Source: Thermoplasmata archaeon (GTDB lineage Archaea > Thermoplasmatota > Thermoplasmata > Lutacidiplasmatales > UBA184). From it: 64,000 nucleotides of DNA. Position 1 is the stretch's first letter. The number at the start of each line of letters is the position of its first letter. The notes under the pieces are model-generated. The model searched no databases. It was not told the origin of the DNA and was given only the letters and a program-made list of their open reading frames with translations. The stretch covers positions 3,676-67,675 of the forward strand of contig JAKAUN010000002.1 of NCBI GenBank assembly GCA_021817605.1. The letters run 5' to 3'. This document shows positions 2,871 through 53,111 of the stretch, one piece after another. The translations under genes and the position numbers were made by a program.

Positions 2871-4010
2871 TTACGTGCCGCCCGAGCCGACGCCCAGCTG
2901 GGATCTGGCCGCCTCGTTGAGCGGCGAGCGCTCGACCTCGAGCGCGTCGGCGGTGGGGTACTCCTCGACCTCGAAGGCAGGCCAGGGGAGCCGAGCCGCC
3001 ACGCGGCGCAGGCGGGCCGGGGCGAGCTCGACGCGGCGGCGAGCCAGGTCGAGGCGGTAGCTCCCCGTCGGAAGCTTCGAGCGACGCGCCACCCGTGTCG
3101 CCCAACGGCCCAGCTCGCCGACCGGCCCCGCCTCGACCACGCCGAGGACGATCGTGCCGTCCTCGGTGGTCTCGGCAAAGGTCGGGGCCGTCCGTTCGGC
3201 CCTCCGCAGCAGTCGCCGGCGGAGCTGCACGCCGTCCTTGAACCGGGAGGAGCAGTAGTGGACCGGGAGCCCCGGGGGAGCCTCCCGCACGAGACGCTCC
3301 GCCACGGAGCGGCTTCCCCGGACCCCCCAGCCGTTGCGGGCATCGGTGCGGTAGCCGCGGTCGAGCAGCAAGGCCTCGTTGGTCTCGGAGAACTCGAGCT
3401 CGTTGAGGTTGACGAAATCGACCCCGATCTCCCGCAGGGTCCGCAGAAGACGGCGCAGCTCGGCCTCCTTCTCGGGGAGGACGGGGATCTCCACCCCCCG
3501 GCGGATCCCCCAGCGTGGCGCCTCCTCGAGGACCTTGCGGTAGGCGCCTCCCGACGACGCGAGCGGCCCCCAGAGGTAGTGGGGAACGTGGAGGCGGAAC
3601 TCGTCCAGACCCGCGGCGGCGAGCCGCCTAAGCTTCTCGGCGTTGGGCTCGTGCGTGTAGAGATGGATGTGGTGGTCCGGCCCGAACTCGCGCTTGAGCA
3701 GGCGCACGTAGTGCTCCACGCGATCGACGACCCCAAGCGGGTCCCCTCCCGTGATGCCGGTGCCCGCGGCGCCGATCGCCCGGGCCTCCTCGAGGAGGTC
3801 GGAGTCGCTGCGGACCCGCCGTTCGTTGGCGTAGACGACGTCAATCTGGTTGCGTGAGGGGGAAACCGGGCAGTAAAAGCAGCGGAACCTGCAGAGCCCC
3901 GTGACGAAGAGCACCATCTTACGCCCCTCGCCGCACTGCGTGCACGCCGGCGAGAGCGCCCCCCGGTGGCTCGACGCCATCGGCAGAAGCGCAAGGCCCG
4001 TGGTCTCCAT
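2871..4010 (-). CDS. Radical SAM protein (PflA-like activase / AmmeMemoRadiSam-like family), function unknown
   Basis: CxxxCxxC motif in VTGLCRFRCFYCP, with CTQCG just upstream. About 379 aa. Divergent from psmA. Confidence 0.7.
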   Translation of the reverse strand: METTGLALLPMASSHRGALSPACTQCGEGRKMVLFVTGLCRFRCFYCPVSPSRNQIDVVYANERRVRSDSDLLEEARAIGAAGTGITGGDPLGVVDRVEHYVRLLKREFGPDHHIHLYTHEPNAEKLRRLAAAGLDEFRLHVPHYLWGPLASSGGAYRKVLEEAPRWGIRRGVEIPVLPEKEAELRRLLRTLREIGVDFVNLNELEFSETNEALLLDRGYRTDARNGWGVRGSRSVAERLVREAPPGLPVHYCSSRFKDGVQLRRRLLRRAERTAPTFAETTEDGTIVLGVVEAGPVGELGRWATRVARRSKLPTGSYRLDLARRRVELAPARLRRVAARLPWPAFEVEEYPTADALEVERSPLNEAARSQLGVGSGGT

Positions 4011-4189
4011 GGGAGGGAAGCGAGCGGCGCGCCCGCTCTAAGGATTTCCGCCCGCTCGGCGGCTCCTCCGGAGGCGGCGTCGGGCCCGGTCCGGTTGCGT
4101 CGGGCCACCTGGTGGGGTCAGGGCGAGAGCTAGGCGCAGGCTCAAATGCCCCACCTGATTCGCCGCCACCACTTCGGGGGCCGCTAGCG

Positions 4190-4954
4190 ATGGAGATGCA
4201 ACCGGGCCAGATGGCGTACGACCGTGCGAGCACCGTGTTCTCGCCGGACGGGCGGCTCTTCCAGGTCGAGTACGCCCTCCAGGCGATCCAGATGGGAGGC
4301 ACGGCGGTCGCCGTGACCTACGACACGGGGATCGTCTTCGTCGCCTACCGCAACCTGCCGGTGAGCACGCTCGCCGAGGCCAGGTCGATCGAGAAGAGCT
4401 TCGCCGTCGACAGCGGCCTCGGCTGCGTCACCGCCGGCCTCATCGCCGACTCGCGGGTCTTGGTCGAGTTCCTCCGCGTCGAGGCCCAGCGCCATCGCCT
4501 CACCTACGGTGAGACGATCCCCTACAGCCTTCTCGGCCATTCTCTCGGGACCCTTCTCCAGCAGTACACGCAGTTCGGAGGGACCCGGCCGTTCGCCGTG
4601 TCGCTCCTCCTCGGAGGCTTCACGGGCAGGGCCCCGGGCCTCATCGAGCTCGACCCGAGCGGCGCGACGATCGGCTGGAGGGCATATGCCATCGGCCGCA
4701 ACCGCCGCGCGGTCGCCGACTTCCTCGAGGAGAAGATGCCCGAGCGGCCGAACGAGGAGGCGGCCTTCAAGCTCGCCGTCCAGGCGGTCGCCGAGGGGTC
4801 GCCCACGCCGTTCCAGCCCGAATCTCTGGACGCTGCGATCCTCGAACCCGACTCGGAGCTCCGTCGCCTGCCGACGGCCGATATCGCCCGCCGAGTCCAG
4901 GGGCTGCCGTTCATCGGCGCCCCGGAGCGCAAGGGAGCCGCCCGCGGGGCGTGA
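4190..4954 (+). CDS. psmA: Proteasome alpha subunit
   Basis: MEMQPGQMAYDRASTVFSPDGRLFQVEYALQAI... is the canonical 20S alpha N-terminus. ATG 4190 is in frame inside track ORF 4112..4954. Confidence 0.9.
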   Translation: MEMQPGQMAYDRASTVFSPDGRLFQVEYALQAIQMGGTAVAVTYDTGIVFVAYRNLPVSTLAEARSIEKSFAVDSGLGCVTAGLIADSRVLVEFLRVEAQRHRLTYGETIPYSLLGHSLGTLLQQYTQFGGTRPFAVSLLLGGFTGRAPGLIELDPSGATIGWRAYAIGRNRRAVADFLEEKMPERPNEEAAFKLAVQAVAEGSPTPFQPESLDAAILEPDSELRRLPTADIARRVQGLPFIGAPERKGAARGA

Positions 4955-18346: not shown

Positions 18347-21300
18347 CTAGGGCACTTCCTTGCGGTCTGCGCACGCCGCGTCCGTGGGACGGTCCTCGTC
18401 TCCCGCGGTCTGCCCCCCAAGAGCAGCTCCCGACCGGGAGGCGCCCGCCGCGGCCAGGAGCAACGTCGTCGCGAGAGCGGCTGCCGCGGGGAGCGCGAGC
18501 CCGGCACCGCCCACCGGCCCGCCGACCGACAACGCGGACGGAAGGCGGGGGAGCGCGGGGGGGTTCATGGTGACGTTGACGAGCTGCCTCGGAGACGGCG
18601 CGTGGAGCACCGCAATCGTTCCGCTGGCAGGGGTCGGGGCCTGCGTGTTCGCGACCCCCACGGTGTAGGTGTAGTTGCCTATCGGCAAGAGGAAACGGAT
18701 GACGCCCTTGCCGGCGAGCTTCGAAAGGGTCGTGGGGAAGGTGAGCGCCGGGGTCGAGCCGGTCGCGATCGTGACCGTCCAGGTCGCCCCAGCCTGTAGG
18801 CCCTTCTCGCGGAAGACGATCGCCTCGGTCAGTAGGCGGAACTTCACCACCTTGGTGAGGGCATGCTTGGGAACGTGGAACCCACCCTTGGCCGGCAGGA
18901 CCTTGTACTCCGCTCCCGGGCCGGCGATCGCGAAGTGGAAGGCGGCGCCGGTCGGTAGGGAGAACGATATCGAGGTGCCGGTCGATGTCTTCGACTGGCC
19001 GGCGGGTCCGCCGTGGGGGAACGCGGGGGTGAGATCAACTCCCCAGGTCGACCCCGCGTACTTCTGGAACTTCGCTAGCGAGCTCTGGTTGAAGGTGACC
19101 GTCTGGAGGTGCCCGAAGATGACCGTCCACGTGGCGACCCCCGACAGCGAGTAGGTCGGGGTCCCGTAGGTCTGGTTGGGCGACCCCGGACCCGCGATCC
19201 TGGCGACCCCCCATCCTGCGGGCCCACTGATGTTGTAGACGAGGGCGCCTGCCGCCTCCGAGAACGAGACCGAACCTGTCGACCCGGTCCCGGTCGTCAC
19301 CGTGGTGTCGCTCCTCACGATCCCGAGAACATCCACCGACCAGAGCGCCCCGGCCGGGAGGTGGAGCTCCCGGAAGCGCAAGGTGTGCCCGAGCGACGCC
19401 GTGAAGACGATGGGGATGTTCACGGGGCTCCCGCTGATCGAGAACTGCCCGCCGTAGAGGCTCGCGGCGAACCCCGGCACGAAGGGGATGGTGAAGTTGT
19501 AGCTGATGTTTTGGGCGTCCATGACCATCGCGTCGGGAGCCGGGGCGGTCGCCGTCACCGTGCCCGGAGGCGTGCCGAAAGCATGGCCGATCGAGAGCGA
19601 CCAATTCGTCCCGTTCGGGAGACCGGTCTCCGTGAACGTGGCGAGTTCGCCGGCTAGCAGGCTCGAGTTCGTCACCGCGTAGGCCTTCGACCAGTAGACG
19701 CTGGTCCCCGCGAACACGTTCTCTTGGAGGGTGATCGTGGTGAGCCCGTTGAAGCAGTCCGTCGCCTCGATGGACGCCGTCGGCACGACACTGGCGGCGC
19801 AGCTAGCCGCCGACTGGCTCGCGCCGTTGGACCCGGACGTGCTGGTCCCGATCAGCACGTTGTGGGCTGCCATCTGCGCCGTCCCGATGAGGAAGATCCC
19901 CGGCGCCCCGCTCGCCGCGTTGTTGACCACGTTCGCATCCACGGTGGTGATTCCCGTGCCTTGCGGCTCGGTCACGATGCCGTAGGCGAGGCTGTCGGTC
20001 ACGGTGTTGCCGTCGATCGTCGCCGGGGCGCCCGCGATGCCCGCGTAGCTCGAGGTGTACATCGCATACAAGATTCCGACCGAGCTCGAGCCCACGTGGT
20101 TCGCCTCGATGTTGCACGTCAAAGCCCCCGGAGCACATCCGGCCCAGATCGCCGACGATTGGGTCTGGGTGAAGTAGGAGCCGCCGGTCTCGAAGGAGAA
20201 GCCGCGGACGGTGTTGCCTGAGACGGTCACCGAGCTACCCCAGACGATGATCCCGCCCTCGGAGGCCGCCGTATCGGCTGCCCCTGGGCCGAGAACCGTG
20301 TTGCCGATCACCGAGAAGGTCCCGGTGGGCTCGACCGACGTTGCGGGGAAGATGTCGCCCGCCTCGATCCCCACCGGGCCGCCGGGGCCGGCCCCGCCGG
20401 CTCCGAGCGTGACCGTCGAGGATTCGATCGTGGCGCTCGTCAGGGCGGGGGCCACGATGATCCCGTTGACAGCGCCCGTTCCGAGCGTCGTCGCGTCCTT
20501 CACCGTGACCCCGTTCGCTTGGACCCCGATCGAGTTGCCGTCGCTCGGGTAGCCCGTCGTGTTGATCGTGAAACTCGCCCCGTTGAGCGTGCTGTCGGCC
20601 CAGTAGTCCGTAACGTTGCCCGCAAAGCTCGAGCGCAACGTGGCGACCGTGCCGGCTACCGACACCAGGCTGGCGTTCGTCGGGATCCCGCTCGAGCTCA
20701 GCACGAGCTGGCCGGGAGCCGCGTGGACGAACACGAGCACCGGCTCGACCACCGCCGAGCCGCTGACGGAGCCAACACCCGGGGTGATCAGCGTGTTCTC
20801 GTACCACCCGCCAATCGCTCCGATGCCGTAGGAGAACGATCCGTTCTGGAGATCGCCGACGATCGACGCCGGCGCGGGAACGTTGGCCGTGGTGCCGTTC
20901 ATCGTCACGGACCAGTCGAGGCCCGGGGTAAGGCCGCTCTCGGACCACGTAACATGCTCCCCACCCCGCTGGAACGAAGTCGCCGGGTAGGTCGGGAAGG
21001 TCGCCGTCCAGTCCGGCGCGTTCGTCTGAGCGAAGATGTTGGCGTTCAGCGTGACCTCGGTCGCGGGGTTGAAGCAATCGGTGGCCTCGACCGACGCGGT
21101 CGGGATCGTCGAAGCGACGCAGCTCGCCTGACCTTGGAGCGCCCCGTTGGTGCCGGTGGTGTTCGTCCCCAGGAAGACGTTCCCGGTCAGCGAGAAGGTC
21201 CCTCCAATGAGATAGGCGCCTGGGGCGCCGCTGGGAGCACTGGCGAACGTGTTGGACTCGACCAGGGAGACTCCCGCGGCCCCGGTGGGCTCAAGGACCA

Positions 21301-22240
21301 TCCCGTAGGCGAGGCTGTTGGTGATGGTGTTGTGCAGGACCACTACGGCCGATTGAGCGATGCTCCCAAAACCGGAGGTCATGAGGGCGTAGACGATGCC
21401 GATGCCGTTCGTGTTGAGGGTGTTGGAGTTGATGTCGCACGCAGGCGCGCCTACGGCGCAGCCGGCGAGGATCCCCACGGACTGGGTGTCCTGGAACCAT
21501 GAGGAGTAGGTATTCGCACCGGAGGTCGTGGTCGTGTCCAGGGAGAATCCGCTCACCGTGCTGTTGGTGATCGCGACGGAGTTTCCGTAGACGACGATCC
21601 CGGTCTCGCCGGCGGTGCCTCCCGCACCAGGACCGACGACCGTGACCGCGTTCACGACGAAGGTGCCCGTGGGCTCGACCGCCGTGGCCGGGAATACGTT
21701 GCCGAGCTGAATCCCCAGAGCCGTCGTGCTTCCGGCGGCGAGCGTCACCGTCGAGCTTTCGATCGTCGCCGAGGAGGTGACGAGCGAAGGCGCCGCAAGG
21801 ATCCCGTCCGTGCTGCCGCTCGAGATCGTCACGAAATTCTGCACCGTGATGCCGTTCGCCTCGAGGCTGAGAGCCGCGAGGTCGGTGGGATACGCCGTCG
21901 CGTTGACCACGCACCCGGAGCCGTCCAGCATACTGTTGGCAAACGAATCAGAAAGGTTGCCCGAGAAGCCCTCGAGCACCGTCACCACCGAACCGTTGAC
22001 GGAGACCGCTGTCGGGTCGCTCGAGACCCCTCCGGCAGAGATGGTGACCGTCCCGAGACTACCGGCGGAGGGGCAGGCGGCCAAGGTGGAGAAGGCAGGC
22101 CCTCCCGGCGCCGATCCGACGGAGGACCCGAGGAAGGGGCCCGCGCCGGCAATCGTGGGGGCAAGGGCGAACCCCACCACCGCGAGGAGGCCGACCAGGG
22201 CCGCCCGGACCACCACGCGTCGAGGGGCGCTCATAGCCAC
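18347..22240 (-). CDS. Large secreted/cell-surface protein (1297 aa): signal peptide, two tandem right-handed beta-helix modules each followed by a beta-sandwich domain, further beta-sandwich repeats, C-terminal membrane anchor
   Basis: N-terminal signal MAMSAPRRVVVRAALVGLLAVVGFALAPTIAGA. Dozens of N-x-S/T sequons. Gly/Thr/Ser/Asn/Val-rich beta-helix-like repeats with conserved TIESSTVTL, FPAT(A/S)VEPTGTF, ASCxAS..PTAS(V/I)EATDCFN. C-terminal hydrophobic stretch LALPAAAALATTLLLAAAGA followed by a charged tail. Confidence 0.75.
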   Translation of the reverse strand: MAMSAPRRVVVRAALVGLLAVVGFALAPTIAGAGPFLGSSVGSAPGGPAFSTLAACPSAGSLGTVTISAGGVSSDPTAVSVNGSVVTVLEGFSGNLSDSFANSMLDGSGCVVNATAYPTDLAALSLEANGITVQNFVTISSGSTDGILAAPSLVTSSATIESSTVTLAAGSTTALGIQLGNVFPATAVEPTGTFVVNAVTVVGPGAGGTAGETGIVVYGNSVAITNSTVSGFSLDTTTTSGANTYSSWFQDTQSVGILAGCAVGAPACDINSNTLNTNGIGIVYALMTSGFGSIAQSAVVVLHNTITNSLAYGMVLEPTGAAGVSLVESNTFASAPSGAPGAYLIGGTFSLTGNVFLGTNTTGTNGALQGQASCVASTIPTASVEATDCFNPATEVTLNANIFAQTNAPDWTATFPTYPATSFQRGGEHVTWSESGLTPGLDWSVTMNGTTANVPAPASIVGDLQNGSFSYGIGAIGGWYENTLITPGVGSVSGSAVVEPVLVFVHAAPGQLVLSSSGIPTNASLVSVAGTVATLRSSFAGNVTDYWADSTLNGASFTINTTGYPSDGNSIGVQANGVTVKDATTLGTGAVNGIIVAPALTSATIESSTVTLGAGGAGPGGPVGIEAGDIFPATSVEPTGTFSVIGNTVLGPGAADTAASEGGIIVWGSSVTVSGNTVRGFSFETGGSYFTQTQSSAIWAGCAPGALTCNIEANHVGSSSVGILYAMYTSSYAGIAGAPATIDGNTVTDSLAYGIVTEPQGTGITTVDANVVNNAASGAPGIFLIGTAQMAAHNVLIGTSTSGSNGASQSAASCAASVVPTASIEATDCFNGLTTITLQENVFAGTSVYWSKAYAVTNSSLLAGELATFTETGLPNGTNWSLSIGHAFGTPPGTVTATAPAPDAMVMDAQNISYNFTIPFVPGFAASLYGGQFSISGSPVNIPIVFTASLGHTLRFRELHLPAGALWSVDVLGIVRSDTTVTTGTGSTGSVSFSEAAGALVYNISGPAGWGVARIAGPGSPNQTYGTPTYSLSGVATWTVIFGHLQTVTFNQSSLAKFQKYAGSTWGVDLTPAFPHGGPAGQSKTSTGTSISFSLPTGAAFHFAIAGPGAEYKVLPAKGGFHVPKHALTKVVKFRLLTEAIVFREKGLQAGATWTVTIATGSTPALTFPTTLSKLAGKGVIRFLLPIGNYTYTVGVANTQAPTPASGTIAVLHAPSPRQLVNVTMNPPALPRLPSALSVGGPVGGAGLALPAAAALATTLLLAAAGASRSGAALGGQTAGDEDRPTDAACADRKEVP
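19370..22009 (-). repeat. Intragenic tandem duplication: two ~440-aa modules (about aa 78-517 and 518-957) of the surface protein
   Basis: Manual alignment of the two halves shows colinear conserved blocks, estimated ~45-55% identity. Examples: GNLSDSF.../GNVTDYW..., TIESSTVTL in both, GFSLDT/GFSFET, TDCFNPATEVTLNANIFAQ/TDCFNGLTTITLQENVFAG, VTWSESGLTPGLDWSVTM/ATFTETGLPNGTNWSLSI. Module boundaries are approximate. Confidence 0.6.
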
Positions 22241-38043: not shown

Positions 38044-38273
38044 GGTGCCTCCTGTCCGCGCCGGTACAAAGGCCCTCCTTGGGAGGAGGACGACCCCCGG
38101 GTGCGGCCGCCCGAGGGACGGACACTCGCCTCGCCGAGCTCCTCGGTCGCGCTCGTCGCGATGCTTGCGGGGGAGCACGGGGGATCGAAACCGCGAGAGG
38201 AGCTTACGGTCCGTTCGGGTCGCGCCGGGTCAGGTGGCCCGCTCAAGCAGCCACACCGCGGCCGGGGCCAACC

Positions 38274-38279
38274 TATATA
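38274..38279 (+). promoter_or_regulatory. TATATA box of the RHH/ftsZ-like operon
   Basis: cCTATATAGg is the only AT-rich element upstream of the operon. About 55 nt upstream of ATG 38335. Confidence 0.5.
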
Positions 38280-38301
38280 GGCGACCTCAGATATGTCAAT
38301 C

Positions 38302-38330
38302 GTCAGACAAAGAACCATATCTTGTCTGAC
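38302..38330 (+). promoter_or_regulatory. Perfect 9-bp inverted repeat GTCAGACAA-(11 nt)-TTGTCTGAC at the predicted transcription start, candidate operator
   Basis: Seen directly in the sequence. Lies between the TATA (38274-38279) and ATG 38335 of the RHH regulator gene. Confidence 0.45.
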
Positions 38331-38334
38331 AATC

Positions 38335-38700
38335 ATGTCCGACACGTCCGAGCGGGTCACCGTCCGCATCCCACAAGAGCTGCTGGAGAAGCTCAAGCAG
38401 ATTCAGCTATCCAAGGGGACGGCGACGATCTCCGACACGATACGGGAGGGGCTCGAGCAGTACATCGAGCTCAACCTGCCCCCCCAGCACATCCGCAAGG
38501 TCGTGGTCGAGCTCTCCCGCCAGGACAACAGCCGGCTCGAGGAGTTCGTCCGGGAAGGCAACTCCGTCAGCGTCGACGACGCCGTCCGCTCGGCCGTGCG
38601 GGAGTACATCCGCAGCCGGATCGATCAGCTGGCTCCGGCGTCCCGCTCCCCGCGCCGCGAGGGCGATACCGTCGCCGCCGCCGGCTCTCCGCCGGCGTGA
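38335..38700 (+). CDS. Tandem ribbon-helix-helix (CopG/Arc/MetJ-like) DNA-binding protein, 121 aa
   Basis: Two consecutive beta-strand/helix/helix units: VTVRIPQELLEKLKQIQLSKGTATISDTIREGLEQYIE and KVVVELSRQDNSRLEEFVREGNSVSVDDAVRSAVREYIRSR. ATG 38335 preferred over ATG 38293, which would lie upstream of the predicted TSS. Confidence 0.65.
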   Translation: MSDTSERVTVRIPQELLEKLKQIQLSKGTATISDTIREGLEQYIELNLPPQHIRKVVVELSRQDNSRLEEFVREGNSVSVDDAVRSAVREYIRSRIDQLAPASRSPRREGDTVAAAGSPPA

Positions 38701-38714
38701 TAGGTCCCCTGTCC

Positions 38715-39740
38715 ATGTTCGACGGTCCGACGGCGGACGCCCTCCACGGCCTCTCGCTCGCCCCGTCGATCGCGGTCGTCGGGCTCGGAGGCGCCGGTTC
38801 GGAGGCGGTCGACGACCTCGTCAACCTCGGCCTGCCGGGGGCGCGCTCGCTCGCGGTGAACACCGACGCCCGCCACCTCAGCCACGTCCGGGCCGAGGAG
38901 CGGATCCTTCTCGGCCAGCGAGAGCTCGGCGGACGCGGGAGCGGCGGCGACCGTGCGGCGGTCCTTCGTGCCGCCGAGGACAGCCGCGAGGAGATCCTCC
39001 GAAGGCTCTCACGGTTCGAGCTCGTCTTCCTTCTCGCCGGCCTCGGAGGCGGAACCGGGAGCGCCCTGCTCCCGTTCCTCGTCAAGGAGCTCAGGAAGAC
39101 CGAGGCGCTCCCCGTGCCGGTCGTCTTCCTGCCGTTCCGCGTGGAGCTCGAGGCGAACCCCGGCCGTCGGCAGAACGTCGAGGAGACGATCGCCGAGCTC
39201 GAAGGACTCGGGGGCCTCCTCCTCGTCCTCGCCAACGAGAAGCTCCGCCGGTTCGAGTCGCTGCCGGTCCACCGCGTCTTCGGCGTGCGCAACGCCTACC
39301 TCCACGCCCTGATCGCCAACCTGGTCGACATCGTCGACCATCCCTCGCAACTCAACGTCGATCTCGCGAGCGTGAAGAGCCACCTTCGTCAGTCGGGGCT
39401 CTCGACCCTGATCATCGGCGAGGAGCACATCTCCGAGCCGGCCCGGCTCGTGCAGCGCGCCCTCTCCGATTCGCTCCTTGATTTCGAGCTCCCCTACCGG
39501 CCGAGCGCGCTCGTCCACCTGGAAGGGGGAACGAACCTCACGCTCCGCGTCCTGGACGAGGTGCTCCACACCGTTCGGGAGCACCTCGGCGAGCCGGCCC
39601 GCCTCACCTTCGGGGCGAGGATCCGCCCGGAACCGTGCGAGGTCGTCCGACTGACCGCTGTCCTCGGCGGGCTCAAGCCCCGCACCGTCCACGAGGCCGT
39701 CGCCCGGCTTCCCCCGTCGGCTCCGCTCGCCGCCCGCTAG
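38715..39740 (+). CDS. Divergent FtsZ/tubulin-superfamily GTPase (FtsZ-like), 341 aa
   Basis: IAVVGLGGAGSEAV (T1), AVNTDARHL (NTD motif), GRGSGGD (T3), LLAGLGGGTGSALLP (tubulin signature GGGTGS), ANEKL (T5), LNVDLASVKSHL (T7 NxDxxD). Deviates from canonical archaeal FtsZ1/2 (GGGGGN). Starts 15 nt after the RHH gene stop. Confidence 0.75.
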   Translation: MFDGPTADALHGLSLAPSIAVVGLGGAGSEAVDDLVNLGLPGARSLAVNTDARHLSHVRAEERILLGQRELGGRGSGGDRAAVLRAAEDSREEILRRLSRFELVFLLAGLGGGTGSALLPFLVKELRKTEALPVPVVFLPFRVELEANPGRRQNVEETIAELEGLGGLLLVLANEKLRRFESLPVHRVFGVRNAYLHALIANLVDIVDHPSQLNVDLASVKSHLRQSGLSTLIIGEEHISEPARLVQRALSDSLLDFELPYRPSALVHLEGGTNLTLRVLDEVLHTVREHLGEPARLTFGARIRPEPCEVVRLTAVLGGLKPRTVHEAVARLPPSAPLAAR

Positions 39741-40375
39741 CCTTCGGGCCGCGCCCGAGCCTCCCGGGACCGAGCCCGGGCTTCCCGGACGTCGAGCTCG
39801 TGGTGAAAGATGTCCAGCACCTGGCTGGTCCGCAGCACCCTCGGGCCGACCGACAGCCGGGGGACCCCGCTCCGTTCGAGGACCGCGCGCTCCTCGACTG
39901 TCGGGTCGTGGGGGTCGGAGACGACCGCCGCGACCTCCGGGCCGGCCGGGAGCCCCTCCGCGAGCGGGTTTCCGTCCTCGGAAAGCCAGAGAGCGCCCGA
40001 CCGGGAGAGAAAGCTCCCGAGGTAGGCGAGGGGGTCGACCGGTCCCACGGAGAGACCCGGCGAGGACTCGAAGTCACGCTCGACGTTCGCGGCACGCACG
40101 AGGGCGTTCTTGAGCAGAGCGGCGGTCGACCGCTCGTCCGGATTGAGATAGCGGAGGCGGGCCCCGACAAGCTCCACCCGGCGGGAGGCCGGGGGAGGCT
40201 CGGCGGCGAAGAGGATCGCGACCTCGGTGTCGCGGCGAAGGGTGTTCGACAGGGTGAAGGCGGTCGAGACCGCGCGGGCGACCTCGTCCATCCGTCCCGC
40301 GCCGCCCGCGAGGTCGTTGAGAGTGAACTCCCCCCGGACCGGAACCTTGTGGGCGAGCAGGAGGAAGCGGCGCAT
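39737..40375 (-). CDS. trmY: tRNA (pseudouridine54-N1)-methyltransferase TrmY (SPOUT, COG1901/DUF358)
   Basis: From ATG 40375: MRRFLLLAHKVPVRGEFTLNDLAGGAGRMDEVARAVSTAF... matches the TrmY N-terminus. About 212 aa. The upstream part of the track ORF is Arg/Pro-rich junk. Confidence 0.7.
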   Translation of the reverse strand: MRRFLLLAHKVPVRGEFTLNDLAGGAGRMDEVARAVSTAFTLSNTLRRDTEVAILFAAEPPPASRRVELVGARLRYLNPDERSTAALLKNALVRAANVERDFESSPGLSVGPVDPLAYLGSFLSRSGALWLSEDGNPLAEGLPAGPEVAAVVSDPHDPTVEERAVLERSGVPRLSVGPRVLRTSQVLDIFHHELDVREARARSREARARPEG

Positions 40376-40428
40376 CGCCCGCCAGCGGGGCGCCGGGCCG
40401 CTATAACTTTGGGCGGACGGAGAGTCGT

Positions 40429-41091
40429 CTACCCGACCCCGCCCGCGCGACGGCCACGCGGGGCGGCGGGAGGCTCCGGCGCGGGGCTCTGGCGTCGCTC
40501 GAGCCAGATCTCGTCGCCGAGCTCGTGGTAGACGGCGTGGTCGGCCATGCCGGTCCCCCGCTCCCCGTGGGGGAGACGGAAGCCCGAGGCCCGGTTGAGG
40601 TTCGGCGAGTAGACGACATCGGCCTCGCCGGCGGCAGCCATCGCCGCGGACTCCTCCCGAGCCAGCTCGAAGATGCGCTCCTTGCGGAACATCCAGTAGT
40701 GGATGCGCCACTCGCGCCCGTCGTAGAGGGTGGTCTCGTCCCGCTCGGTCTCGAGGATCCCGGTGTCCTCCAGCATGTAGAACGTGTCGCGGTCGTCCGG
40801 CTCTAGGACGTTGTCGATGATACGCTCGTTGAAGCCAAAGAAGTTGAGGACGTGGGCAGCGATCGAGCGGGCATCCTCGGCACGCATCCCGTCGTGCCCG
40901 ACGGAGCGGCGGATCGCCTTGGCGAGCGAGTCGAAATCGACCGGCCCGCTCGCGTCGACCAACGTCGCGTCGGTCGGCAGACCCATCCGGGTCTGCGAGA
41001 TGTCCTCCGCGGTCCTCAACGGGACCGGGTTCCTAAGAGTATAATGCGCCGTGCCCTCCGCCCGCGAAGGGCGCCCCCCCGTGCCCGTCAC
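40429..41091 (-). CDS. Hypothetical protein (conserved core ...RIIDNVLEPDDRDTFYMLEDTGILETERDETTLYDGREWRIHYWMFRKERIFEL...)
   Basis: ORF with a non-low-complexity core. No recognisable domain. True start may be at the internal MGLPTDATL. Confidence 0.45.
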   Translation of the reverse strand: MTGTGGRPSRAEGTAHYTLRNPVPLRTAEDISQTRMGLPTDATLVDASGPVDFDSLAKAIRRSVGHDGMRAEDARSIAAHVLNFFGFNERIIDNVLEPDDRDTFYMLEDTGILETERDETTLYDGREWRIHYWMFRKERIFELAREESAAMAAAGEADVVYSPNLNRASGFRLPHGERGTGMADHAVYHELGDEIWLERRQSPAPEPPAAPRGRRAGGVG

Positions 41092-41189
41092 GAACGAATC
41101 TATCCTCTGGTTCGCTATTTATATCTTGGCTGAGCCCCAAGGACCGAAAGGAACGACCCCATCCCGCGCGGGCGGCCGTCCGAGGCTCT

Positions 41190-41771
41190 TCAGAGCACGA
41201 CCCGACGGCCCCGTCCGACGCGCTGAAGCGCCTCGACCCCCGGACGCCACTCCTCCTCCTCGATCCGGAACTCGACCTCCGCGAGCTGGGAGAGCTCCTT
41301 CGGGAACGGCAGGAGAGACTTCGCGAGGTAGACGTGGGCGTACGGCGAGCCGGACGGGGCGCTCCAGCCCTTGCCCGTGTCCACCACGCCGCGGAACTCG
41401 TAGTACTCGGGCGCCGGCAAGAACCAGACCACGCTGTCGTCGGTCGCTCTCAGTCCCGAGGGCGGACGAGGAAGGAGCTGGAGCCCGAGGTGGTGGGCGA
41501 CCTGAGCGGGGAGCGTGAAGAGCAGCCGTTCGCCCGGGCGCGCGGTGGCGATGAGACGGTTGCGGACCGTCTCCACCGCGAGGGCCTCCCGAGCGGGGTA
41601 GGTCGCGATCACCCGCGCGATCCCCGACCCCCGGCTGAGGAAGGAGATCGAGCGGCTTGCGGGCCGACCACCCGCCCCGACCGGGTCGTAGCGGAGGAGC
41701 GCGGCGACCTCGGTGGGAAGCTGCATGGTGAGCCACGTCGGGTGCGTCGCGCGCAGGACGACGTACTCCAT
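41190..41771 (-). CDS. Hypothetical protein, 193 aa
   Basis: Globular-looking sequence (MEYVVLRATHPTWLTMQLPTEV...EVEFRIEEEEWRPG). No recognised motifs. TATA-like cTATAAGa at about 41789-41796 immediately upstream. Confidence 0.45.
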   Translation of the reverse strand: MEYVVLRATHPTWLTMQLPTEVAALLRYDPVGAGGRPASRSISFLSRGSGIARVIATYPAREALAVETVRNRLIATARPGERLLFTLPAQVAHHLGLQLLPRPPSGLRATDDSVVWFLPAPEYYEFRGVVDTGKGWSAPSGSPYAHVYLAKSLLPFPKELSQLAEVEFRIEEEEWRPGVEALQRVGRGRRVVL

Positions 41772-51545: not shown

Positions 51546-53111
51546 ATGGCGCGGATCCGAAGAGGCTCCACAGTCCGGGAGGCGGACCTCCTTTCGCGAG
51601 CCAAGGCGCTGAGGTCGAGCGTCGAGCCGCTGCTCCCGCGGCTCACCGCCGAGTGCCCGACCGAGCGGTTCGACCGTCTTCGGCAGGAGCTCGAGGAGGT
51701 CCGGGCCGCACGCGAGGACGACAAGCGGCTCACGCGTCTCTCCCGCTGGGGGGATCCTCTCGCCCGGGCCTACGCCGGCCTGCTCAAGTTCGCCCTCGAA
51801 CCGACGGCGCCCGCGGTGGTCGCCTTCGAGATCCCGGGTGGCGAGGTCTCCTTCGCGCCGCTCGCCCGCACCGACCGGGAGGCAGAGGTCGCGGTGCAAC
51901 AGTCGGACGACCCGGGACGCCTGCTCCTCGGCTACCTCACCTGGGGGAAACGCGGCTTTCACTTCTTCGCGACCCGCAAGACGCTCTGGTGCACGGGACG
52001 CTCGCCGACCCCTCCTGAGGAGTTCCTCGCGGAACGGATCGCCGAGCAGCCGTACCGCCTCATCGAGAACGCTGCGGAACGACGGTTCGACTGCCCGCAC
52101 CTTTCCAGCGGAGAGCCTCGACCCTACCTCGAGGTCGGCTGGGTCGGCGCGGACCGGCGGTTCCGGGTCTGCCGCCGCTGCGCGAAGGAGGGCCGTCAGC
52201 TGCTCTCGAGCCTGTCGGAAGGGGCGCTCGGGCCGGACCCCGTCGCGGAGTTCCCCGTCGCGGCCTCGCTCAACGTCCGCTGCTCCGGCGGGCAGGCGTG
52301 CGTGCACGCCGTCCTCCCGGAGCTGCCCCGCCCGCTCCGCCAGAGCTACGAGCGAGGGCGCCTTTCGGACGCGCAGCTGATCGACGAGTACCTCCTCGAG
52401 CTCAGGCCGCGTCTCGAGCGGGTGAGCCGGCCGACGTTCGTTGCCGGCGGGGTCTGCTACGGCTCCGATCTCTCGGGCTTTCTCCAGGCACTAGATCCCA
52501 CCCCGGCCGAACGGGCCGCGCTCGAGACGGTCCTCGGCGGACGCCCCGGGCTCTTTGAGGTGGACGAGCCGTCCGCGAGCCGGGCGCTCGAGAAGCTCTG
52601 GGCGTCGCACGCGGAGGAGATCGTCTCGGCGATCGTCCACGACCCGAAGGAGGCCCGACGGCTCGTCGACCAAGCCCGCGGCGCCCCGGGGCGCGTCGCG
52701 GAGATCCTCAAGCGCGCCCAGCGCCAGAGCGAGACCCGGGAGCTTCTGGGGACCTTGCCACAGTACGCTTCGCTCGCCCCCGAGGCCGCGTGGGCGGACC
52801 GGATCGCCCGCGTCCATCGCACCGGAGGGGATGCGGCCGCCGAGCGCGCCGTCACCGAGTCGCTCCCCCGCGAGGGCAAGACCCGCGGGCTCGCCTACGG
52901 GATGCTCCTCGCCATCGGGCGGACCGGCCCGCATGCCTGGCAGTTCTCCCCGACGGAGAAGGAGTTCGGCCAGTCGCTCGAGCCGCGGGCCCGTGCGCTC
53001 CTCGGCTCGACGCCGGAGGGCTACCACGAGGCGCTCGGCGCCCTCCTTACCGCCGCCGGCGTCGCGGGGTGGGGAACTCTGGCGGCTCCCAACGTTCCGC
53101 GCGAAGGGTAG
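51546..53111 (+). CDS. Hypothetical 521-aa protein with scattered Cys/His motifs
   Basis: No recognisable domain. Cys motifs CPHLSSG, RVCRRCAKEG, VRCSGGQACVHAV. Non-repetitive composition argues it is real. Confidence 0.5.
   Translation: MARIRRGSTVREADLLSRAKALRSSVEPLLPRLTAECPTERFDRLRQELEEVRAAREDDKRLTRLSRWGDPLARAYAGLLKFALEPTAPAVVAFEIPGGEVSFAPLARTDREAEVAVQQSDDPGRLLLGYLTWGKRGFHFFATRKTLWCTGRSPTPPEEFLAERIAEQPYRLIENAAERRFDCPHLSSGEPRPYLEVGWVGADRRFRVCRRCAKEGRQLLSSLSEGALGPDPVAEFPVAASLNVRCSGGQACVHAVLPELPRPLRQSYERGRLSDAQLIDEYLLELRPRLERVSRPTFVAGGVCYGSDLSGFLQALDPTPAERAALETVLGGRPGLFEVDEPSASRALEKLWASHAEEIVSAIVHDPKEARRLVDQARGAPGRVAEILKRAQRQSETRELLGTLPQYASLAPEAAWADRIARVHRTGGDAAAERAVTESLPREGKTRGLAYGMLLAIGRTGPHAWQFSPTEKEFGQSLEPRARALLGSTPEGYHEALGALLTAAGVAGWGTLAAPNVPREG

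Follow-up and report, generated by a model that had tools for sequence, protein, structure and literature searches.

We analyzed a 64-kb stretch of a Thermoplasmata archaeon contig (JAKAUN010000002.1), hereafter the window, in which a gene for a 121-amino-acid (aa) protein with two ribbon-helix-helix (RHH) units precedes a gene for a divergent 341-aa GTPase of the FtsZ/tubulin family. We judge that this locus is probably the cdrS-ftsZ2 cell division operon of high-GC soil Thermoplasmata (Lutacidiplasmatales/TMEG-like), with a duplicated CdrS, a promoter carrying two 7-bp sites (heptads), and a diverged FtsZ2. An earlier note on this DNA had proposed a new regulator-controlled module, but the arrangement is that of the published cdrS-ftsZ2 operon (PMC7439475, PMC8406309), in which an RHH_1 neighbor has also been noted (PMC9871819). 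The finding is a version of this known module and not a new class of system. In haloarchaea, cdrS and ftsZ2 are co-transcribed and control division (PMC7439475, PMC8406309). The module is one of very few known for cell cycle control in archaea, with haloarchaea the only group in which it has been studied. What goes beyond the searchable literature is the widespread duplication of CdrS, a two-heptad site shared across orders, and substitutions at four positions of FtsZ2 in 80 related species.

The GTPase and its tandem-RHH neighbor

The proteins nearest to those of the window come from uncultured Thermoplasmata of soil and peat. A scan of one genome per species found relatives in 163 species, and we fetched and examined 80 of these loci, among them UBA184 and AcS isolates of the order Lutacidiplasmatales/TMEG. 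Members of this order have a GC content of ~69% and genomes of ~2.1 Mb, and none is cultured (PMC9287336). In the window and in all 80 related species (together, the clade), the FtsZ-like gene is directly preceded by the RHH gene on the same strand, bearing out the earlier claim that an RHH protein with its own conserved site precedes a divergent FtsZ gene. This gene order and the FtsZ2 affinity of the GTPase together argue that the locus is orthologous to the archaeal cdrS-ftsZ2 operon already described. Among 1.84 billion library representatives (50% identity), the clade FtsZ proteins form essentially one cluster, and the next real matches fall to 28 to 35% identity. The ratio of nonsynonymous to synonymous substitution rates (dN/dS), probably inflated by a strong bias in GC content at third codon positions (GC3), is 0.09 to 0.17 for the RHH gene and 0.22 to 0.32 for the ftsZ gene. 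Both lie below 0.35, values that point to purifying selection on both genes, less tight on ftsZ than on the regulator.

The 341-aa protein carries Tubulin (PF00091; E = 1.8e-27) and FtsZ_C (PF12327; E = 1e-10) domains and scores 190.4 bits against the FtsZ equivalog model TIGR00065, whose cutoff is 295.2 bits. It is thus a divergent member of the family, as had been noted, and not a canonical FtsZ. Its best match in the Protein Data Bank (PDB) is the M. jannaschii “FtsZ homolog 1” (aa 18 to 323; E = 2e-45), and the 52 PDB sequences with E ≤ 1e-3 include no TubZ chain. An assignment to CetZ was rejected, as 3zid, 4b46, and 4b45 match only over partial stretches with E values of 5e-10 to 8e-8, against 2e-45 for FtsZ. 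We grouped archaeal FtsZ representatives by a neighbor-joining (NJ) tree and motifs and labeled the groups by synteny (80 metagenome loci) and by the PDB entry “FtsZ homolog 1.” An RHH open reading frame (ORF) is found upstream in 11 of 15 FtsZ2-type loci, 0 of 26 FtsZ1-type loci (the M. jannaschii FtsZ1 group), and 0 of 21 bacterial loci, the last having FtsA upstream, while a further FtsZ1-type locus (L171) adjoins nusG-L11-L1. These contexts agree with the published neighborhoods, in which ftsZ2 typically lies with an RHH_1 gene and ftsZ1 with translation genes (PMC9871819).

Hidden Markov model (HMM) scores of the window FtsZ are 258 (FtsZ2-type), 233, 222, and 219 (FtsZ1-type) bits, and the RHH-linked (FtsZ2) profile scored best in all six clade members tested, with margins of 24 to 39 bits. 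Among 200 NJ bootstraps, the sister group consists solely of tandem-RHH-linked Thermoplasmatota FtsZ2 in 178 and of FtsZ1 in 3. Profiles and tree together assign the GTPase to the FtsZ2 lineage, where its branch is very long. The C-terminal linker is nearly absent, and the clade proteins often end in P-[LV]-x-A-R or IP[LV]VR, resembling the GIPLVR tail of the canonical Thermoplasmatota FtsZ2 at locus L167. Two other Thermoplasmatota loci bear on the FtsZ complement of the phylum. In a metagenome-assembled genome (MAG) of 67% GC (L171:3001-5398; DATEUP010000280.1), two tandem FtsZ1-type genes of 387 and 368 aa lie directly upstream of nusG-L11-L1; FtsZ1 is thus duplicated in at least some soil Thermoplasmatota. 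In L166, a locus of the RumEn M1 type, an FtsZ1-type gene (1-926) lies ~2 kb from the tandem-cdrS-ftsZ2 genes (3001-4373) on the opposite strand, with a TBP gene between them.

The GTPase differs from other FtsZ proteins at four positions of the nucleotide pocket and catalytic loop, which we compared with 145 other FtsZ domains and scored for fixation across the 80 clade species. The Asn of T1 (GGAGSEA), present in 141 of the 145 others, is Glu30 here and Glu in 79/79 clade species scored. Ala117 takes the place of the T4 Gly (GGGTGSA; Gly in 145/145 others, Ala in 80/80 clade species), and Asn193 that of the H7 Asp (FxVRN; Asp in 129/145 others, Asn in 79/80 clade species). In T7, where NVDLAS aligns with NVDFAD of M. 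jannaschii FtsZ, the second Asp, found in 140 of the 145 others, is Ser219 (clade species: Ser in 74, Thr in 6, Asp in none). The protein therefore lacks the canonical FtsZ set of NxDxxD, T1 Asn, T4 GGGTGxG, and H7 Asp. It had been described as having all GTP-binding loops; GGGTGS and GGAGSEA are indeed present, but NxDxxD is not, and the catalytic loops are not intact. The fold is kept, as are most GTP-contact residues: T4 GGGT, T5 Glu and Arg, T6 Asn, H7 Phe, and the Asn and first Asp of T7. The second T7 Asp activates GTP hydrolysis in the adjacent subunit. Liao et al. (Nature Microbiology, 2021) reportedly found that Haloferax FtsZ1 and FtsZ2 become dominant-inhibitory when the T7 Asp is mutated to Ala. 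Given the loss of this Asp and established FtsZ biochemistry, the clade FtsZ2 probably binds nucleotide but activates its hydrolysis poorly. Such an order-wide natural T7 “mutant” could inform what FtsZ2 needs GTP hydrolysis for.

The 121-aa protein matches Pfam RHH_1 at aa 7 to 45 (E = 1e-7). The NCBIfam equivalog model of haloarchaeal CdrS (NF058555), which is specific to Halobacteria, matches its second half (aa 56 to 97) with 22.7 bits against a cutoff of 100. The NCBIfam model of aCcr1 matches aa 8 to 44 only weakly (23.5 bits; cutoff, 60), and the protein is not a member of that family. Sulfolobales aCcr1 and its viral homologs, among them SIFV gp29, are likewise RHH factors that control division genes through a short promoter motif (PMC9976892), but they belong to another lineage, with an ESCRT-based division machinery and the motif AGTATTA. 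BLASTP detects no similarity between the two halves of the protein, and only profile comparison reveals their homology: hhalign aligns unit 1 with unit 2 in register over the strand, helix A, and helix B (probability, 97.5%; E = 7e-12), which upholds the earlier reading of two RHH units. Single-unit CdrS proteins from ftsZ2 loci align with both unit 1 (99.1%; E = 4e-19) and unit 2 (98.3%; E = 2e-14). Since both units are homologous to single-unit CdrS, the protein is a duplicated CdrS, an RHH protein homologous to CdrS but not a small one with a single unit.

Tandem-RHH proteins of other Thermoplasmatota are 103 to 105 aa long and align with the window protein without gaps over both units. At least 543 homologs are present in the protein database, with named sources in Thermoplasmata, Methanomassiliicoccales (including RumEn M1), and MAGs labeled “Methanobacteriota” and “Euryarchaeota.” At each of three loci looked up, the gene precedes an FtsZ gene of 346 to 361 aa. 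By these sequence comparisons, a duplicated CdrS is widespread in Thermoplasmatota, including Methanomassiliicoccales. This would make it a natural single-chain regulator throughout the phylum, testable in the cultivable Methanomassiliicoccales. The loci L166, L167 (CP070767.1), and L168 (WNFX01000101.1) share with the window the RHH architecture, the two heptads, and a short FtsZ2 (346 to 361 aa). In contrast to the window protein, their FtsZ2 is canonical (426 to 466 bits on the FtsZ2-type HMM; T7, NLD[YF][AS]D), and their RHH proteins lack a C-terminal tail of ~20 residues that the window clade adds, with a conserved RREG...GSPPP pattern.

Pairing of the two RHH units within one chain is plausible, and a precedent exists. 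The SIFV gp29 protein, a cell cycle regulator, has two RHH motifs within one polypeptide and folds in monomeric form (PMC9976892). AlphaFold predictions for the window protein gave a predicted local distance difference test score (pLDDT) of 50 with a shallow alignment of 27 sequences. With 65 diverse sequences, the pLDDT was 69 and the predicted template modeling score (pTM) 0.36, with helix pairs H14-27/H32-47 and H62-73/H80-99. A PDB profile search with the RHH family returned marginal matches only.

Predicted promoter and two-heptad site

The perfect 9-bp palindrome that the earlier note had placed at the predicted transcription start, with arms separated by 11 nucleotides (nt), is present and conserved across the clade. 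It is the only match to its pattern in the window even when three mismatches are allowed (0.01 expected by chance). Of 81 sequences (the window and the 80 loci), 80 have a single copy, and no other copy lies in 686 kb of clade DNA, unlike a centromere-like array. The “palindrome” is in fact a pair of GTCNGAC heptads, GTCNGAC-N15-GTCNGAC, spaced 22 bp from start to start. Across 86 aligned sites, GTC and GAC show no variation in either heptad, and the center base varies. Since 22 bp corresponds to two helical turns, both heptads lie on one face of the helix. Each arm is by itself a 7-bp mini-palindrome, as would suit a two-fold symmetric RHH dimer or pseudo-dimer.

The same layout of a TATA box, 22 to 23 nt, and GTCNGAC-N15-GTCNGAC before a tandem-RHH gene is also found at L166 (Methanomassiliicoccales type; GTCCGAC...GTCGGAC), L167 (GTCGGAC...GTCCGAC), and L098 (GTCAGAC...GTCGGAC). 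The L168 site (GTCAGAC...GTCGGAC) has direct-repeat flanks and a TATA-like box only ~15 nt upstream of the heptad. Comparing the heptads alone, we found both at the same spacing at L092, a single-RHH cdrS-ftsZ2 locus; L084 has a single heptad and L086 several copies. Related heptads are ~19-fold enriched upstream of FtsZ2-type genes (2.09 versus 0.11 per kb), and no enrichment was seen upstream of FtsZ1-type or bacterial ftsZ genes. A candidate operator conserved across orders would allow regulons to be predicted in uncultured archaea. Our literature search found no paper describing the motif; the published CdrS motif from chromatin immunoprecipitation (ChIP), available as a figure only (PMC8406309), was not compared.

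Haloarchaeal loci carry several copies of a variant, GTAAGAC/GTCTTAC. The haloarchaeal brine contigs L088 and L090 have inverted repeats of this form upstream of cdrS, with seven half-sites within 700 nt in L088. The same haloarchaeal sequence, GTAAGACGGTTGTCTT, occurs in the spacer oligonucleotides used for CRISPR interference against the Hfx. volcanii cdrS promoter (PMC8406309). The variant may be the CdrL or the CdrS site in haloarchaea. In one clade member (L063:408-444), a third heptad (GTCCGAC) lies exactly 22 bp upstream of heptad 1, placing three sites in phase. Among 2.9 million viral contigs, the sole exact match to the 29-bp dyad pattern (IMG/VR contig L164:5776-5804) lies inside a small gene in the baseplate region of a low-GC phage, beside large structural genes, and we regard the match as due to chance.

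The flanks diverge freely in the region preceding the RHH gene, where the dyad, a proximal element, and the TATA box are fixed. The 11-nt spacer inside the dyad is constant in length and variable in sequence. The earlier note's TATATA box is present (Table 1). In most of 78 clade loci, an A/T-rich 8-mer spans positions -30 to -23, taking the first G of heptad 1 as reference, and the three commonest forms, TTCATATA, TTCAAATA, and TCTATATA, together account for 64 of them. These are the canonical positions of an archaeal TATA box relative to the transcription start. By this geometry, the TATA box would serve as the promoter, with transcription starting at the first G of heptad 1. The proximal element, GATATGTCAATC, is at least 90% conserved at most positions across the 78 loci. 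Its 3' part, GTCAATC, is a degenerate heptad that abuts GTCAGAC. Possible roles for the element are a weak third site, an initiator or proximal promoter element, and a site for a different factor. The elements had been described as lying 15 nt apart, but the actual gaps are 22 nt from the TATA box to the dyad, 4 nt from the dyad to the ATG, and 14 nt from the RHH stop codon to the ftsZ ATG.

Many gene callers start the RHH gene at an upstream ATG (38293) within the proximal element, which gives a protein of 135 aa, and ~40 of 120 listed database gene calls are 134 to 135 aa long, fitting this start. Translation from it would read the conserved operator as MSIVRQRTISCLTI. We rejected this start because the distance from the dyad to the downstream ATG ranges from 3 to 5 nt among loci (4 nt in 70/78), so that the two ATGs do not share a conserved frame. 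The dyad stretch is therefore non-coding, and the 134- to 135-aa calls are probably mis-called starts. No clear Shine-Dalgarno sequence precedes the RHH start codon in the 78 loci.

Proposed autoregulation and its alternatives

We propose that the operon regulates itself. With its RHH unit duplicated, one CdrS-type chain could supply both halves of the usual RHH dimer, and one tandem-RHH molecule would bind each heptad. With the heptads occupied from about +1 to +29, the start site would be covered and RNA polymerase blocked, so that the operon would set its own level by negative autoregulation and hence the dose of FtsZ2. In division, FtsZ2 would in turn form a slow or stable polymer or else partner another FtsZ. 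We infer autorepression by the tandem-RHH protein from the position of the site, as archaeal regulators bound at a promoter or downstream of it are usually repressors (PMC8406309). The candidate operator thus suggests a form of autoregulation hitherto undescribed for CdrS.

The haloarchaeal operons (VNG0194H-VNG0192G in Hbt. salinarum and HVO_0582-HVO_0581 in Hfx. volcanii) likewise have a small RHH gene just before an FtsZ2-type gene in the same orientation, and GTC/GAC-type inverted repeats upstream of cdrS. They differ from the window in several respects. The intergenic gap is 3 nt in Hfx. volcanii (PMC8406309) and 14 nt here, and the NCBIfam model of haloarchaeal CdrS has 61 positions, whereas the window protein has 121 aa in two fused RHH units and a tail. 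The CdrL gene is absent from the locus. Haloarchaeal CdrS has been described as an activator, whereas the site at the predicted start suggests repression here. Finally, Hfx. volcanii FtsZ2 has the catalytic T7 Asp that the window FtsZ2 lacks, and the C-terminal linker of the latter is almost nil.

Several points weigh against our reading of the locus. The GTPase scores 258 bits where true FtsZ2 members average 432, and its NJ placement, on a very long branch beside another long branch (L130), could be partly artifactual. The effect of its substitutions on GTPase activity is extrapolated from mutants of other FtsZ proteins. The AlphaFold model of the regulator has four helices and no β-ribbon and does not establish pairing of the units within the chain, and its best Foldseek matches are RHH proteins (NikR, Arc, and AtaR), none of them significant. 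The transcription start is predicted from geometry alone, and the heptads are a candidate site of the RHH protein by sequence. In Halobacterium, ChIP sequencing found CdrL, and not CdrS, on the cdrS-ftsZ2 promoter (PMC7439475). Among the 18 CdrS sites listed for H. volcanii, the promoter of CdrS itself is missing, and the majority are upstream of promoters, which fits activation (PMC8406309).

The haloarchaeal data also favor the strongest alternative, which we nonetheless regard as unlikely: that another transcription factor binds the heptads, as CdrL does in Halobacterium (PMC7439475), and that the tandem-RHH protein activates division genes elsewhere, as the location of most H. volcanii CdrS sites upstream of other promoters would suggest (PMC8406309). 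Consistent with another binder, the β-strand of unit 1 (ERVTVRIP) is close to that of haloarchaeal CdrS (ERVTLRIP), yet the haloarchaeal sites are GTAAGAC/GTCTTAC, and site and strand show no obvious covariation. The range of CdrL, however, is reportedly confined to Halobacteria (PMC7439475), while the heptads extend across Thermoplasmatota and to other FtsZ2-type loci. Another binder is therefore needed outside Halobacteria, and the co-inherited RHH protein is the simplest candidate. Gene and site are inherited together in every locus examined, and RHH dimers bind sites of this kind, with a 7-bp palindromic core that recurs after two turns (Schreiter and Drennan 2007, as cited in PMC9976892).

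A second alternative, somewhat further from likely, is that the GTPase is no longer a division protein but a neofunctionalized or third paralog, for example with a CetZ-like role in shape or as a scaffold, whose linkage to cdrS was merely kept. The clade FtsZ shares only 29 to 31% identity with other Thermoplasmatota FtsZ2 proteins, which share 45 to 58% among themselves. The score below the TIGR00065 cutoff, the four substitutions in pocket and catalytic loop, a dN/dS higher than that of the regulator, and the expansion of FtsZ paralogs in other Thermoplasmatota (the two tandem FtsZ1-type genes of L171) fit the same picture. Nevertheless, the regulator and operator stayed with the GTPase, and the regulator diverged in proportion, with 39 to 44% identity between the clade and other Thermoplasmatota against 60 to 79% among the latter. 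The C terminus often keeps the short ending that resembles the L167 FtsZ2 tail, and no second FtsZ2-type gene is found in the window or in any locus flank.

It is quite unlikely that the dyad acts as RNA, with a 9-bp hairpin at the 5' end of the mRNA leader governing the operon's stability or translation, either in place of a DNA operator or alongside one. A transcript starting at the first G would include the dyad, whose predicted fold has a free energy of -13.5 kcal/mol (z = -3.7 versus shuffled sequences). A role in translation would fit a start codon 4 nt after the stem in 70/78 loci with no clear Shine-Dalgarno sequence, and at the distant loci L166 and L167 both arms have changed with complementarity kept. 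Against this, 6 of the 9 stem pairs never vary, and double changes occur only at the heptad center, where 7 distinct sequences are unpaired and 3 are compensated. The 11 center combinations other than A/T yield two Watson-Crick pairs and one wobble pair. This freedom of the center base argues for a protein that binds DNA and not for an RNA stem, and mini-palindromic arms are expected of a two-fold symmetric protein site. The distant loci, moreover, differ in heptad arrangement (single in L084, several in L086 and haloarchaea, and with direct-repeat flanks in L168), and the hairpin matches no Rfam family.

A segregation cassette of the TubR/TubZ type, which the earlier note had favored by analogy, is highly improbable: the RHH protein would be the centromere-binding adaptor, the palindrome the centromere, and the GTPase a DNA-moving filament motor, but the likeness to type III plasmid partition is limited to a superficial layout of a small DNA-binding protein and nearby site followed by a tubulin-superfamily GTPase, whereas TubR is a winged-helix protein and not an RHH protein, the GTPase carries FtsZ_C, matches FtsZ structures and no TubZ chain in the PDB search described above, and groups with RHH-linked FtsZ2, the two heptads occur once per locus and not as an iterated centromere array, the setting is chromosomal with downstream synteny in 71 to 81 of 83 clade-related loci, and scans of viral contigs found no RHH relatives. 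The analogy breaks down for each feature that we compared. A false lead is thereby removed, as the locus is not a new segregation system.

A bolder extension of the cdrS-ftsZ2 reading is a long shot. Throughout an order of soil archaea, FtsZ2 might be a nucleotide-binding subunit unable to activate hydrolysis and a fixed partner of FtsZ1, a step toward a tubulin-style heterodimer, with its dose set by a single-chain CdrS acting on an ancient GTCNGAC “CdrS box.” If so, the T7 Asp→Ser change would parallel the non-catalytic T7 residue of β-tubulin, the H7 Asp→Asn change would be tubulin-like, and the step would have been taken independently in archaea. The “CdrS box” would then be common to Thermoplasmatota and several other FtsZ2-bearing archaeal lineages.

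Layout of the locus and its chromosomal setting

Table 1. Features of the cdrS-ftsZ2 locus, all on the plus strand; coordinates are positions within the 64-kb window
Feature	Position	Strand	Remarks
TATA box CCTATATA	38272-38279	+	TATATA core, 38274-38279
Proximal element GATATGTCAATC	38290-38301	+	AT-rich; between TATA box and dyad
Perfect dyad GTCAGACAA-N11-TTGTCTGAC	38302-38330	+	29 bp
Heptad 1, GTCAGAC	38302-38308	+	Extends as GTCAGACAA to 38310; begins at predicted transcription start
Heptad 2, GTCTGAC	38324-38330	+	Extended form TTGTCTGAC from 38322; 22 bp start-to-start from heptad 1
cdrS-like tandem-RHH gene	38335-38700	+	121 aa; ATG at 38335
RHH unit 1 (~aa 6-48)	38350-38478	+	Pfam/NCBIfam matches, profile comparison
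RHH unit 2 (~aa 53-99)	38491-38631	+	Followed by clade-specific C-terminal tail
Divergent ftsZ2 ortholog	38715-39740	+	341 aa
T7 loop NVDLAS (aa 214-219)	39354-39371	+	Second, catalytic Asp is Ser219

The chromosomal setting with housekeeping flanks, also noted earlier, is confirmed by gene content and synteny. The window has a GC content of 70.7% and contains genes for UvrA, topoisomerase I, EF-1α, an S13-S4-S11-RpoD cluster, Pelota, citrate synthase, DnaJ, KdpAB, and SerRS. Downstream of the operon, a convergent block on the minus strand (39737-41771) encodes a SPOUT-type RNA methyltransferase (PF04013), a DUF6015 protein, and a 193-aa protein without a family. Among the 83 clade-related loci fetched, these three genes are syntenic with the operon in 81, 75, and 71, respectively. 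This conserved synteny and the housekeeping surroundings mark a stable chromosomal locus. At L166, of the Methanomassiliicoccales type, a different SPOUT methylase (PF00588) is convergent after FtsZ2 in the same position.

Two long ORFs elsewhere in the window have no Pfam match at E ≤ 1e-5. One encodes 521 aa (51546-53111, plus strand) and has a gene-like codon composition. The other encodes 1,297 aa (18347-22240, minus strand) and combines a gene-like GC3 of 0.88 with an unusual pattern at the first and second codon positions (GC1, 0.57; GC2, 0.59); it may encode a large surface or low-complexity protein.

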